A stretch of DNA of 64,000 nt, taken from the NCBI GenBank assembly GCA_963675765.1, contig OY776568.1:347558-411557 (forward strand). Direction: 5' to 3'. This DNA is from Phycisphaerae bacterium. GTDB lineage: Bacteria; Planctomycetota; Phycisphaerae; UBA1845. The notes beneath the pieces were generated by a model. That model made no database searches. It was not told where the DNA came from and saw nothing but the letters and a program-made list of their open reading frames with translations. Of this stretch, positions 7,534 to 10,268 are shown one piece after another (within the stretch, counting starts at the first letter, position 1; each line of letters starts with the position of its first letter). Both the position numbers and the translations under genes were made by a program.

Positions 7534-10050
7534 CTAGGGACCAAATACTCTCTGTCCCAGCGATCCCTTAATCCAGTTTATTGGATTATACAGATTCGGC
7601 CAATGTAAAGAACTTGCGCAAACAAGGTAATTTACACCAGAAGAGTAACTTGCGTACAAGTTAGAGAATCCAGGCTGCCATTTTCCAGAGAACAGGTAGT
7701 TCAGCCAAGATACTCTTCCATTCATTACCCAGTTACCGGCAACCAATCCCGGAGGGCCCCAACGACTTACTATAACATAGCCTGTACGACTCGCCAGCAC
7801 GGACGATCCGAACGCATATCCCGCCCAACCACCGACAGCGATACCAACACTAGCACCAATGGCTTCCCCATAAGCTCGCCCATCCGACATTTCCGCAAGC
7901 GTCTCCGTCGAATGAACTTCCATCCACACATGCTCAGCTATCCACTCGTGAAAACCATTGCTGCCATCCCAGAAGTCTTGCCCGTTAGGATCAATCCGAC
8001 TAACCGGATTATTCCCACAATAGCCATACACATTCAATCCACCAGAAATCCCAATCGGATCCCGCTGCAGGAATCGCCCGGTCGACGGATCGTAGTACCT
8101 AGCTCCCGTATGCATAAACGGAAAACCATCAGTAGCGCTACGACCCAGAAGGTTATCCGGCACGCCGTCGCCGCGATAGGTTGTTCCGCCATCACCGGAA
8201 TCGTAATCGTGCTCCTCATAGCCGTGAGCACCCACATAACCATACCGACTGGCCACCCCGCTGTCCAAAGTAACGATCTCACCGAACGCCGTCCGCACCG
8301 AAACTAGCGAACTGGTCACCGTACCGCCCGTGTCCGTCTTGAACCACGTCGAACCCAGCAGGTCCGTGTGCAGATAGCTCACCGTTCGCGGAGTAGTACC
8401 CAAATCGATCTCGGCCACTCCTGGCAAATAGGCAAACAGCTCATCCGGATCATCATCCGGCTCGCGATAATCCACAACCGGAGCGTTACCAATGTAGTCG
8501 GTAAACGTCCTCTCGGCCCCGCCACTCGCCGGAGTAAGGCCATCGTCCAACTCGACATCTGAGACCCGCTGACGAGCACTAAGGTAACTGAACCTGCGCC
8601 CCCACTTGCGCTCGTACCCATCCTGCGGGTAAACGGTGTCACCGCAGAACTCGCTATTGCAGAACGCTCCCATGATCAGGAATGGATGCGATTCACTTCC
8701 GTCGGCATCAACGAATCCGTTCTTCGTAGGATCGCCGCCCTGGTTCAACACCAACAGCAGGTGATTCTCCTCACCGCTCTCCGTACTATCCGCGTCGTCC
8801 GGATCACCTGCCAGCCAACCTCCGTACACGTAGCCGCCCGGCAACGGAGTAACACCTTCCGGCCACCAGGAAAACTGCCAACCCAGTGCATCGCCGGCAG
8901 GATCTGCCCACTCCCAGCAATACGCAGGATTGCTGTTGCATGGGTAGTTGGGATCATTGAAGAAGTTGCCGCTGCTCTCCTGATAGCCACCGACCCAGTA
9001 TGATATCTCCGTATCATCCTGCGGCCGGAAGGCCTCTACGAACCAATCCAAATCAGACTGATCTTCGATCTGCGCTAATCCATAAAGCTCGTCATCGCTA
9101 CTGTACGTAGTATCAATATAGCTCTGGGCCCCGCTCCACGTCCTCGCCTCAGCCGGATCGGAAACCGCTAAAATCCCAACAACACCGTTGAATGACGAAC
9201 GCGTCATGTAGCGCCAATCGTCCACCCACTCGTCGTTCGACACTACGCGCACTCTACCCATGGCGTCATAATCCAGACGAGTGCCCTTGTAGCCCACTTC
9301 CTCGCTACTTTGAGTGGTAATGCGATCGATGTTGCCGTATACGTTGTAGTAGTACCACGTCGTCTCCACTATGGGATCACCGCCACCCGGACGCGGTTTG
9401 CTACTCACGTAGTACATCAAACGGTTGTTGTTGCTGCCGTACTTCTCCACACCGTCGACCGGGTTACTGTTCTCGTCGACCGTATCGACGTCGTAGTAGT
9501 AGGCCACGCTCTCCGTCTGTACGCCATTCTGCTGCACTACCTTACTCTTGCGATTCCCGCCATTATCGTAGGTGTAGCTAATGTCGTAGATGGCCGTCGC
9601 CTGCCCATCAATCAAACGCCGCTCCCGAGTAAGACGGTTGCGATTGTCGTACTCGAACAGAGTGTGATACAGATTGCTGTCCAAGCCACTATCCGAGATC
9701 TGCGTAATCCGACCGCCGTCATCATATAGATAGGTCAGCACCTGAGGAGTGCCCTCACCGGTATCATGGGTAATCGTAAACACCCGACCGTCCGTGTAGT
9801 AATTGTAATCCACTGTCGTCCCGTTTCCATGTGTGATCACATCAACCTGACCGATAGTGGTGTACGTGTAACTCGCCTGGGCATCGGTCACGTTATTCTC
9901 ATCTACTGCCAAAACTGTGGCCACCTGTCCACGGGCGTTTAGCGTTGTGGTTATCTCCCTGCTTCCCACCGTTACCGTTGCCGTTCCCACGGCGTCATCG
10001 TAGGTGTTGTCCGTATCACGAATGTCAGCCGGTCCTCCATCCTCTAGCAT
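7534..10050 (-). CDS. Rhs cassette A (N-truncated): YD repeats, inserted C-type-lectin-like domain, Rhs-associated core, toxin tip A
   Basis: YD/RHS repeats, core GARYYDPSTGRFLQRDPIG...NLYxY-like NVYGYCGNNPVSRIDPNG, then a unique tip of about 147 aa. Confidence 0.92.
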   Translation of the reverse strand: MLEDGGPADIRDTDNTYDDAVGTATVTVGSREITTTLNARGQVATVLAVDENNVTDAQASYTYTTIGQVDVITHGNGTTVDYNYYTDGRVFTITHDTGEGTPQVLTYLYDDGGRITQISDSGLDSNLYHTLFEYDNRNRLTRERRLIDGQATAIYDISYTYDNGGNRKSKVVQQNGVQTESVAYYYDVDTVDENSNPVDGVEKYGSNNNRLMYYVSSKPRPGGGDPIVETTWYYYNVYGNIDRITTQSSEEVGYKGTRLDYDAMGRVRVVSNDEWVDDWRYMTRSSFNGVVGILAVSDPAEARTWSGAQSYIDTTYSSDDELYGLAQIEDQSDLDWFVEAFRPQDDTEISYWVGGYQESSGNFFNDPNYPCNSNPAYCWEWADPAGDALGWQFSWWPEGVTPLPGGYVYGGWLAGDPDDADSTESGEENHLLLVLNQGGDPTKNGFVDADGSESHPFLIMGAFCNSEFCGDTVYPQDGYERKWGRRFSYLSARQRVSDVELDDGLTPASGGAERTFTDYIGNAPVVDYREPDDDPDELFAYLPGVAEIDLGTTPRTVSYLHTDLLGSTWFKTDTGGTVTSSLVSVRTAFGEIVTLDSGVASRYGYVGAHGYEEHDYDSGDGGTTYRGDGVPDNLLGRSATDGFPFMHTGARYYDPSTGRFLQRDPIGISGGLNVYGYCGNNPVSRIDPNGQDFWDGSNGFHEWIAEHVWMEVHSTETLAEMSDGRAYGEAIGASVGIAVGGWAGYAFGSSVLASRTGYVIVSRWGPPGLVAGNWVMNGRVSWLNYLFSGKWQPGFSNLYASYSSGVNYLVCASSLHWPNLYNPINWIKGSLGQRVFGP

Positions 10051-10051
10051 A

Positions 10052-10268
10052 CGCTGAGAATGCCTCGATCACGTCACCATACTCAACAGAAGACAGCCTT
10101 GGTCGAATCCTGAGAAGCCACTTCAGGTACTATAACGAACCACGCTGCCATCTTCTCTTGGATCGCAACGCCTCGACACTCCGTCGAGTTGAGCGTCCAT
10201 CAGAAGGCCAAGTCGTTGCGATTCTGCAAGTCAGCGGGTTGCATCATCGCCATTGCTGCGCGACTTGA
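10052..10268 (+). pseudogene. C-terminal remnant of an integrase-core (rve, IS3-like) transposase
   Basis: Translates with a stop and a frameshift as ECLDHVTILN / EDSLGRILRSHFRYYNEPRCHLLLDRN...VSGLHHRH, matching the ECLDHxIxLxExHLRRIL...YY...H...GGLHHRY tail typical of these transposases. Confidence 0.8.

Follow-up and report, generated by a model that had tools for sequence, protein, structure and literature searches.

What does a domain of about 190 residues do in the middle of an Rhs repeat array? The question is raised by a stretch of 64,000 nucleotides from a Phycisphaerae bacterium (Planctomycetota; contig OY776568.1, positions 347,558 to 411,557 of the forward strand; hereafter the window), in which a gene at 7534..10050 (-), cassette A, encodes an 838-residue, 5'-truncated Rhs protein composed, in this order, of YD repeats, an insert, further YD repeats, an Rhs core and a C-terminal toxin (open reading frame list, translation, alignment and model). 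The initial annotation of the window, made from the DNA letters, took the insert for a C-type lectin-like domain (CTLD) that projects from the Rhs cage as a receptor-binding module and allows the particle to select target cells without a type VI secretion system (T6SS). Here we show that cassette A contains, at residues ~279-475, a divergent yet genuine CTLD, which is shared by cassette C of the window and by a third copy in the same genome. We consider it probable, if some way from certain, that in full-length Rhs shells this domain is an outward-facing module for ligand docking, and that the copies in the window are truncated cassettes acting as a reservoir.

The eight motifs that had suggested a lectin are all found in cassette A, in the order first reported, between residues 304 and 459: TWSGAQSY (starting at residue 304), LAQIEDQSDLDWF (325), YWVGG (351), WEWAD (379), WLAGDPDD (412), EENHL (427), GFVDAD (445) and HPFLI (455). 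The interval to which the initial annotation assigned them, 8640-9215, does hold the segment, with coordinates that are one base off: the gene lies on the minus strand, residues 279-470 correspond to 8641-9216 (-), and the plus-strand translation of 8640-9215 is full of stops. Judged by relatives, the insert ends at residue ~475 (window ~8626). Cassette C (14287..16620 (-)), a second truncated Rhs orphan with a different C-terminal tip, carries the same insert at residues 250-441 (window 15298-15873), 96% identical to that of cassette A and with WKWAD in place of WEWAD, and genome search and blastn locate a remnant of the C-terminus of the domain at the 5' edge of cassette D (~19543..19650 (-)), where ~31 residues match insert residues 161-191 at 65% identity (E 7e-4; 42-nt match in blastn). 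The occurrence in C, and in part in D, is thus as originally described. The third full copy is found at C1:3626018-3626593 (+), at a distance of 3.27 Mb.

Structure prediction and profile comparison both point to the C-type lectin fold. A domain-only AlphaFold model, built from a shallow alignment of 12 sequences (A1; predicted local distance difference test, pLDDT, 63; predicted template modelling score, pTM, 0.65), has the topology β-α-β-α-β-β, long loop, β-β-β, and in the model of the whole protein the core of the domain, comprising two helices and strands β3-β5, reaches pLDDT values of ~80-92. This predicted secondary structure, together with the Foldseek matches, corresponds to the double-loop α/β fold with paired N- and C-terminal strands that characterizes CTLDs. 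Indeed, the top 26 PDB matches of the domain model in Foldseek are CTLDs without exception (26/26, probability up to 1.00), with CEL-I (4wqq/1wmy; target-normalised TM 0.63-0.64) as the best and snaclecs, BDCA2, thrombomodulin, CLEC4D and PAP among the others. At the level of sequence, the A1 profile has marginal matches in the PDB, six of seven of which are CTLDs (tetranectin scaffold, E-selectin, Polyandrocarpa lectin, tetranectin), and Lectin_C is the best, sub-threshold Pfam match for the insert region in three relatives (P0011, P0041, P0123).

A further link runs through P0126, a 1457-residue Rhs protein with DUF6531 and RHS repeats, in which Lectin_C exceeds the gathering threshold of 22.6 bits both in the whole protein (24.0 bits) and in the excised segment (28.5 bits). 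The combination of Rhs and Lectin_C that the initial annotation had advised searching for is therefore present in this protein at Pfam significance. Aligned to the Lectin_C domain of P0126, the A1 profile gives an HHalign probability of 96.1% (E 2.8e-9, 121 columns) and pairs W..A, LA with LV, WIG, W.W, GQPDD with GQPDD and GFADAD with GWYDAD. Homology to Pfam Lectin_C (PF00059) is accordingly indicated transitively, through P0126, and not by a direct match of the copies in the window. With canonical carbohydrate-recognition domains (CRDs; PF00059; CEL-I 1wmy, E-selectin, tetranectin) the predicted domain shares the fold and the order of landmarks (W..A, LA.I, YWVGG, W.W, W..G-x-P-D, E...(F/W)xD). 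Two outcomes had been named beforehand as fatal to the lectin assignment, the lack of a CTL fold and an insert made of nothing but degenerate YD repeats; Foldseek and HHalign returned neither. In particular, a chance resemblance within degenerate YD repeats is ruled out by the CTLD matches in Foldseek and the 96% HHalign probability to Lectin_C.

Several further searches were less informative. The single insert sequence, run against the PDB with phmmer, found only a spurious match to iota-carbonic anhydrase, and a profile of the C-terminal half (A2) found only spurious, repeat-summed matches to designed β-trefoils in the PDB, so that the C-terminal motifs are not tied to solved CTLDs by sequence. 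Global HHalign alignment with the canonical lectins of the same genome matches DPDD/QPDD to QPNN at a probability of only 8%, which we take as a lead only; local alignments to them reach up to 48%. Against viral structures, Foldseek found no phage receptor-binding relative and none of the Mtd type associated with diversity-generating retroelements (DGRs), only weak poxvirus and herpesvirus CTLDs. As for canonical Lectin_C domains in this genome, we observed two stand-alone, secreted-looking proteins that carry one (C1:3274254-3274529 (-) and C1:860187-860447 (-), in open frames of 366 and 238 residues); they are unrelated to the Rhs islands, and the second has QPN and WHD.

Comparison with 129 collected proteins made clear how the domain of cassette A is embedded. 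For 104 Rhs relatives, the alignment with cassette A breaks off near residue 278 and restarts near residue 476, and in P0017, P0023, P0024, P0026, P0029, P0030 and P0033 the gap in the target at this site measures -1 to 7 residues. Because these relatives align up to both flanks with so little between them, the ~197-residue segment is a clean insertion in a continuous repeat array. The insertion loop lies between '...YDxxGRVxxVxxxxW' and 'WxREFRYDxxRQRY', ~3 repeats upstream of the Rhs core, which places the insert between YD repeats and core as the initial annotation had it. The Rhs-associated core itself (NCBIfam TIGR03696) is found at residues 646-691, with 65.9 bits against a cut-off of 32.5 and the signature RDPIG...IDPNGQ, and also in cassettes B, C and D.

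The flanks of the insert are a YD/RHS repeat shell, as seen from homologous regions and from the model. Pfam RHS_repeat remains sub-threshold in cassette A (E 1.1), which shares 40-50% identity with parts of full-length proteins in which the same family reaches E 1e-13 to 1e-27, and which aligns to residues 724-1505 of a 1546-residue full-length Rhs protein from a Phycisphaerae metagenome-assembled genome (MAG; L005) at 48.5% identity over 814 residues. The AlphaFold model of the whole protein (shallow alignment of 27 sequences, pLDDT 65) shows β-hairpins at residues 14-285 (pLDDT 80-95) and 480-586, with an α/β unit between them, and its Foldseek neighbours are Rhs cages, teneurins, Tc BC cocoons and SGS1 (8fjp), at E 1e-15 to 1e-7, the best being the Rhs cages 8qjb and 7q97 (E ~1e-15). 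The N-terminal YD-repeat segment (residues 1-278; 9217..10050 (-)), with 22 regular β-strands at pLDDT 80-95, corresponds to the middle of a full-length cage, and the C-terminal YD repeats with the core (residues 476-690; 7981..8625 (-)), whose sequence reads RYYDPSTGRFLQRDPIGISGGLNVYGYCGNNPVSRIDPNGQ, carry TIGR03696 and the DPIG...DPNG motifs of aspartyl-protease type. Apart from the CTLD site, we noted a low-complexity Gly/Ser/Ala/Glu-rich segment of 50-100 residues in relatives that have no insert (e.g., P0046, P0062, P0066, P0092, P0098, P0116); it corresponds to residues ~243-253 of cassette A, in the hairpin just before the CTLD site ('...RIITEHV[AESAASG...]YTAVRLGYA'), and represents a second permissive loop of this shell region.

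Within the domain, conservation peaks where a C-type lectin would bind its ligand. The most conserved block, residues 411-450 (GWLAGDPDD..E..EEN..LVLN..NGFVDAD; 8701..8820 (-)), has the family consensus GWLAG-[QED]-PDD ... E ... EE(N) ... LVLN ... NGF-[AV]-D-A-D, with conservation of 0.62-0.80, the maximum of the domain. A Trp, a Leu, D418, D419, E424, N436, G445 and D448 are invariant across the family, and E428 is conserved in at least 90%. The block houses the counterparts of the EPN/QPD tripeptide, of the Glu before β3 and of the Asp of WND, and aligns with PWAPGQPDD...SGWYDAD of the Lectin_C domain of P0126. At the EPN/QPD position, which aligns to GQPDD of P0126, half of the 12 aligned sequences have QPD (6/12) and a quarter EPD (3/12). 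Ca2+ site 2 is only partly canonical, because the Asn of WND is absent though the Asp, E424 and E428 are kept. The sole invariant Cys is C371 (insert position 93), whose partner usually lies 7-8 residues on (C379, not invariant), before the W.W strand.

Directly upstream of this block lies a variable loop (residues 400-410; 8821..8853 (-)), in whose 11 codons fall 5 of the 14 non-synonymous differences between cassettes A and C, several of them multi-base codon changes, while the remaining 9 are spread over the rest of the 611 shared codons. Simulation of random placement gives P ~3e-4 for this clustering, a post hoc value; for the insert as a whole, the ratio of non-synonymous to synonymous differences between A and C exceeds that of the remaining protein, though without significance (Fisher P = 0.10). 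The loop is modelled at low pLDDT and shows large cysteine-rich indels among relatives. A conserved acidic pocket beside a variable loop suggests, from sequence, a ligand-binding CTLD; the Ca2+ dependence and the sugar specificity of the putative site are only suggested.

An exhaustive search of 1.84 billion representatives yielded only 13 matches, of which the genuine ones are without exception Rhs proteins or pieces of such proteins. Matches in genomes come mostly from Phycisphaerae/Planctomycetota MAGs, the exceptions being two loci in one alphaproteobacterial MAG and two in one MAG labelled 'bacterium'. The CTLD defines a small Rhs subfamily, mainly of Phycisphaerae/Planctomycetota, whose full-length members (1426-1663 residues) comprise a signal-peptide-like N-terminus, a DUF6531 plug, RHS repeats, the CTLD, the last repeats, the Rhs core and a variable toxin. 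The plug and the export features of a complete Rhs toxin, including a hydrophobic, signal-peptide-like N-terminus, are present in P0005, P0009, P0012, P0126 and the full-length protein of L005. No TssC sheath and no PAAR protein were found in the genome to which the window belongs, and no conserved delivery partner was seen among the genes upstream of the full-length homologs. Since TssC and PAAR are absent from the genome and the relatives have signal-peptide-like N-termini, a Sec-dependent route is the best reading, in keeping with the independence from T6SS that the initial annotation had assumed.

Two members of this wider group call for separate mention. In P0009, the core is followed by a PT-HINT (pretoxin Hint) domain at residues 1486-1621; this full-length, CTLD-bearing homolog therefore indicates that Hint-type processing of the tip is also used in the family. 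In P0126 (from a Logan contig of 8.1 kb), Lectin_C spans residues 1040-1146 and follows the 'WAREYRY..RQRV' repeat, whereas the CTLD of the window family precedes the equivalent repeat. Because the site in P0126 lies one hairpin downstream of the insertion site of the window family, two adjacent loops host homologous CTLDs.

In the genome of the window, the domain occurs in a setting of mobile cassettes. Nine cassettes with a common Rhs core are found in two islands 3.27 Mb apart (window 7534-19650 and C1:3622340-3632288); three of the nine have the CTLD, and none is full length. All nine diverge after DPxG, and the tip of cassette A is unique in the genome, so that the variable C-terminal tip typical of a polymorphic Rhs toxin is present. 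Measured on full-length relatives, cassettes A and C and the third copy begin only around residue ~724-760, so that ~720 residues are missing, and upstream of cassette A nothing Rhs-like is found in any frame. By their sequence, all three are orphan cassettes of unusual length, with the lectin included. As cassette C and the copy at C1:3625256-3627652 have an identical 5' truncation junction (LAIATSDTEVKRLQLRIIVLTQWAGV|DAQASYTYT), a truncated cassette has been duplicated between the islands. A further orphan cassette, P0003, which adjoins a DDE transposase on an ENA metagenome contig from another sample (L015 10001-11713), is truncated inside the domain; its identity to cassette A is only ~57% within the CTLD and 100% past the end of it, which places a recombination breakpoint at the 3' boundary of the domain and implies that lectin alleles are shuffled.

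Taken together, these observations suggest how the domain may work. In full-length proteins, the shell probably bears the CTLD on its outside, and pairing of the domain's N- and C-terminal strands allows it to hang from a single loop. Together with the variable loop, the acidic site (Q/E/D-P-D-D ... E ... E-E ... D) would probably dock the secreted capsule onto a ligand on the surface of the target cell, most likely a glycan, possibly bound with Ca2+. The 5'-truncated cassettes of the window, in turn, would most likely form a recombination reservoir in which lectin variant and toxin tip travel together. A more general idea, which we regard as tentative and on balance doubtful, is that the last turns of the shell, ~200 residues before the cleavage site, may be a general display socket for targeting domains, with lectin and tip cassettes re-aiming and re-arming the capsule and the variable loop as the determinant of specificity. 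Relevant to this socket are the CTLDs of two Rhs lineages, one in the loop before the 'W-x-REFRYD' hairpin (window family) and one in the loop after it (P0126). As the long orphans carry a lectin variant and a toxin tip together, a single recombination event could both re-aim and re-arm a Sec-secreted, T6SS-independent Rhs capsule.

Decorated YD shells have precedents. In mosquito SGS1 (2023, PMC9935623), a carbohydrate-binding module (CBM) and a lectin-CRD are formed by insertions into YD repeats, lie on the exterior of the shell and have been read as receptor domains. SGS1 and the CTLD-bearing Rhs family have in common a shell of Rhs/YD repeats with putative carbohydrate-binding inserts, but the modules of SGS1 (CBM and 'lectin-CRD') are Ig-like β-sandwiches and not CTLDs, and SGS1 is a eukaryotic protein of ~3000 residues with helical cargo, whereas the CTLD family consists of bacterial, Sec-type Rhs toxins with polymorphic tips, truncated in the window. 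Among bacterial toxins, carbohydrate-binding domains of the RicinB, discoidin and bulb-lectin types embedded among RHS repeats have been described and proposed to enhance contact with the target cell (Zhang, de Souza, Anantharaman, Iyer, Aravind 2012, PMC3482391). Those polymorphic toxins, of the Sec/T2SS type, likewise have RHS repeats, an Rhs core, a variable C-terminal toxin and orphan cassettes; in contrast to the present family, whose domain is in most members too divergent for Pfam, the list of that paper does not include the C-type lectin.

The solved Rhs cages of T6SSs (P. protegens RhsA 7q97, Salmonella bongori Rhs 8qjb, V. parahaemolyticus RhsP 8h8a, Tse5 8cp6) and the BC cocoons of Tc toxins (4igl, 6h6g) share with cassette A the shell of YD β-hairpins and the Rhs core with DPxG, and are the best structural and sequence neighbours of its flanking regions. 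They are delivered by PAAR/VgrG or TcA, in contrast to the situation in the genome studied here, with its lack of TssC and PAAR. To our knowledge, no lectin-type insert is known in the C-terminal shell turns of solved Rhs or Tc cages, and the sequence searches revealed none. The literature yielded no description coupling RHS repeats with a C-type lectin domain, and precomputed annotation assigns Lectin_C to none of the 120 Rhs relatives listed. The impression of the initial annotation that the architecture was undescribed thus holds for the CTLD as an inserted module and not for the class to which it belongs (PMC3482391, PMC9935623): new are the CTLD fold, its occurrence in Planctomycetota and its invisibility to Pfam, while a lectin-decorated Rhs shell was already known.

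A number of observations weigh against an outward-facing, ligand-docking CTLD. Some concern the copies in the window, which have no signal peptide, no DUF6531 plug and only half of the cage. Neither phmmer nor blastn found a full-length member of the CTLD subfamily in the genome, whose other large Rhs genes, of 2225 and 2628 residues, are distant relatives only. With the N-terminal half and the signal peptide missing, and no full-length parent, the genes of the window cannot, as they stand, form a closed cage or be exported; the initial annotation, which had them form an Rhs particle, did not hold in this respect, the orphans aligning only to residues ~724-1505 of the 1546-residue relative. 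Three truncated copies do not demonstrate a function in this organism. Regarding the domain itself, neither Lectin_C nor any other meaningful match appeared when A, C and the isolated insert were scanned against Pfam, even at E <= 10, and a genome-wide search with PF00059 at E <= 1 found two unrelated canonical lectins and not the insert. In contrast to canonical CRDs, the four cysteines of the disulfides C1-C4 and C2-C3 are absent (equivalent positions I/A, H/M, M/R), the WND position reads F-V-D in the window and F-A-D in relatives, with an invariant Asp and the Asn replaced, and the copies in the window have DPD and not EPN/QPD; moreover, the long loop is greatly lengthened and, in relatives, rich in cysteine, and the domain is inserted and not terminal. 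This long loop, residues ~385-425, which would provide the binding surface, is modelled with low confidence. Many CTLDs bind proteins, or nothing via Ca2+. Finally, the signal peptides of the relatives were judged by eye, and the position outside the cage rests on analogy with SGS1.

This position bears most directly on whether the CTLD might instead lie inside the cage or plug it, for instance by holding the toxin, with no role in recognition. We consider such an internal, structural role very unlikely on several indirect grounds. By analogy with solved YD shells, in which the folded inserts are all external (the CBM, lectin-CRD, wedge and propeller of SGS1), an exterior location would be expected. 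Close relatives with 0-7 residues at the site form the same repeat array, so that the cage does not need the CTLD. The long-loop region tolerates large indels in homologs, with cysteine-rich loops, and the homologous CTLD of P0126 occupies the neighbouring loop, which geometry would place on the same rim of the antiparallel meander. A domain of ~190 residues together with a toxin of ~150 would also be expected to crowd the cavity. Even further from what we observe is the view that there is no real domain, or that the insert is a DGR variable CLec domain whose variability derives from mutagenesis, to which we give next to no weight. Bacterial CLec folds are the usual targets of DGRs, and the window copy, as noted, has no Pfam match; yet the insert has two α-helices in CTLD topology in addition to its HHalign match to Lectin_C. 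We reject diversification by a DGR on two grounds: a genome-wide search for the DNA of the insert found nothing outside the cassettes that could be a template repeat, and the changes between A and C are not adenine-specific.

The remaining alternatives accept an exposed CTLD and differ in what it binds. It could recognize glycans of the producer's own envelope and so keep the Sec-exported capsule on the surface for contact-dependent delivery, as with WapA. Carbohydrate- and peptidoglycan-binding domains of toxins exported by Sec or the type II secretion system have been assigned such a retention role (Zhang 2012, PMC3482391), and the present family is of the Sec type with no other anchor recognised; but the retention domains in that work are N-terminal, those embedded in RHS repeats being proposed for contact with the target, and a variable loop and the shuffling of CTLD alleles are more easily reconciled with a target that changes than with a self ligand that stays constant. 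We therefore hold retention on the producer to be unlikely. Docking to a protein, be it a translocation or carrier component or a surface protein of the target, in the manner of the TcB β-propeller with TcA or of snaclecs, is in our estimate improbable as well. It would fit the missing WND asparagine and canonical cysteines, as well as the presence of snaclecs, thrombomodulin and the tetranectin scaffold, all protein-binding CTLDs, among the top structural neighbours. On the other hand, the most conserved part of the domain is the acidic cluster Q/E/D-P-D-D ... E ... D, which aligns with the QPD site of the Lectin_C domain in P0126, the best structural match is the Gal/GalNAc lectin CEL-I, and the full-length homologs have no conserved partner gene upstream. 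Docking of the capsule to a target-cell ligand, most likely a glycan, is thus the reading we prefer.

The remaining features of the locus concern the tips and the surroundings of the cassettes. The cassette-specific C-terminal tip of cassette A (residues 691-838; 7537..7980 (-)), a presumed toxin that occurs once in the genome, belongs to no Pfam family over its 148 residues, with a weak hint of Gly-zipper_Omp only (E 0.49). In it, a zipper-like stretch rich in Gly and Ala (GEAIGASVGIAVGGWAGYAFG) is succeeded by a tail rich in Trp, Tyr and Asn, and the tip is not folded by the AlphaFold model. Beyond the 5' ends of cassettes A and C we observed a plus-strand open reading frame of ~192 residues (window 10510-11091 (+) and 16773-17351 (+)), the first of which gives only a weak Pfam hint of DUF7837.

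The impact of these findings is limited by the fact that the general architecture has been described before, that the copies in the window are truncated and that binding and topology are inferred. Even so, how Rhs toxins find and enter their targets without T6SS, PAAR or TcA partners is largely unknown, and the interbacterial weapons of Planctomycetota have barely been studied. An entire CTLD subfamily has been invisible to Pfam, and orphan cassettes can evidently hold a putative targeting module besides the toxin tip. The family extends the idea of a decorated YD shell from mosquito SGS1 and the teneurins to bacterial toxins, and a lectin-type module in the shell of a Sec-exported Rhs family would offer a testable handle on target recognition.

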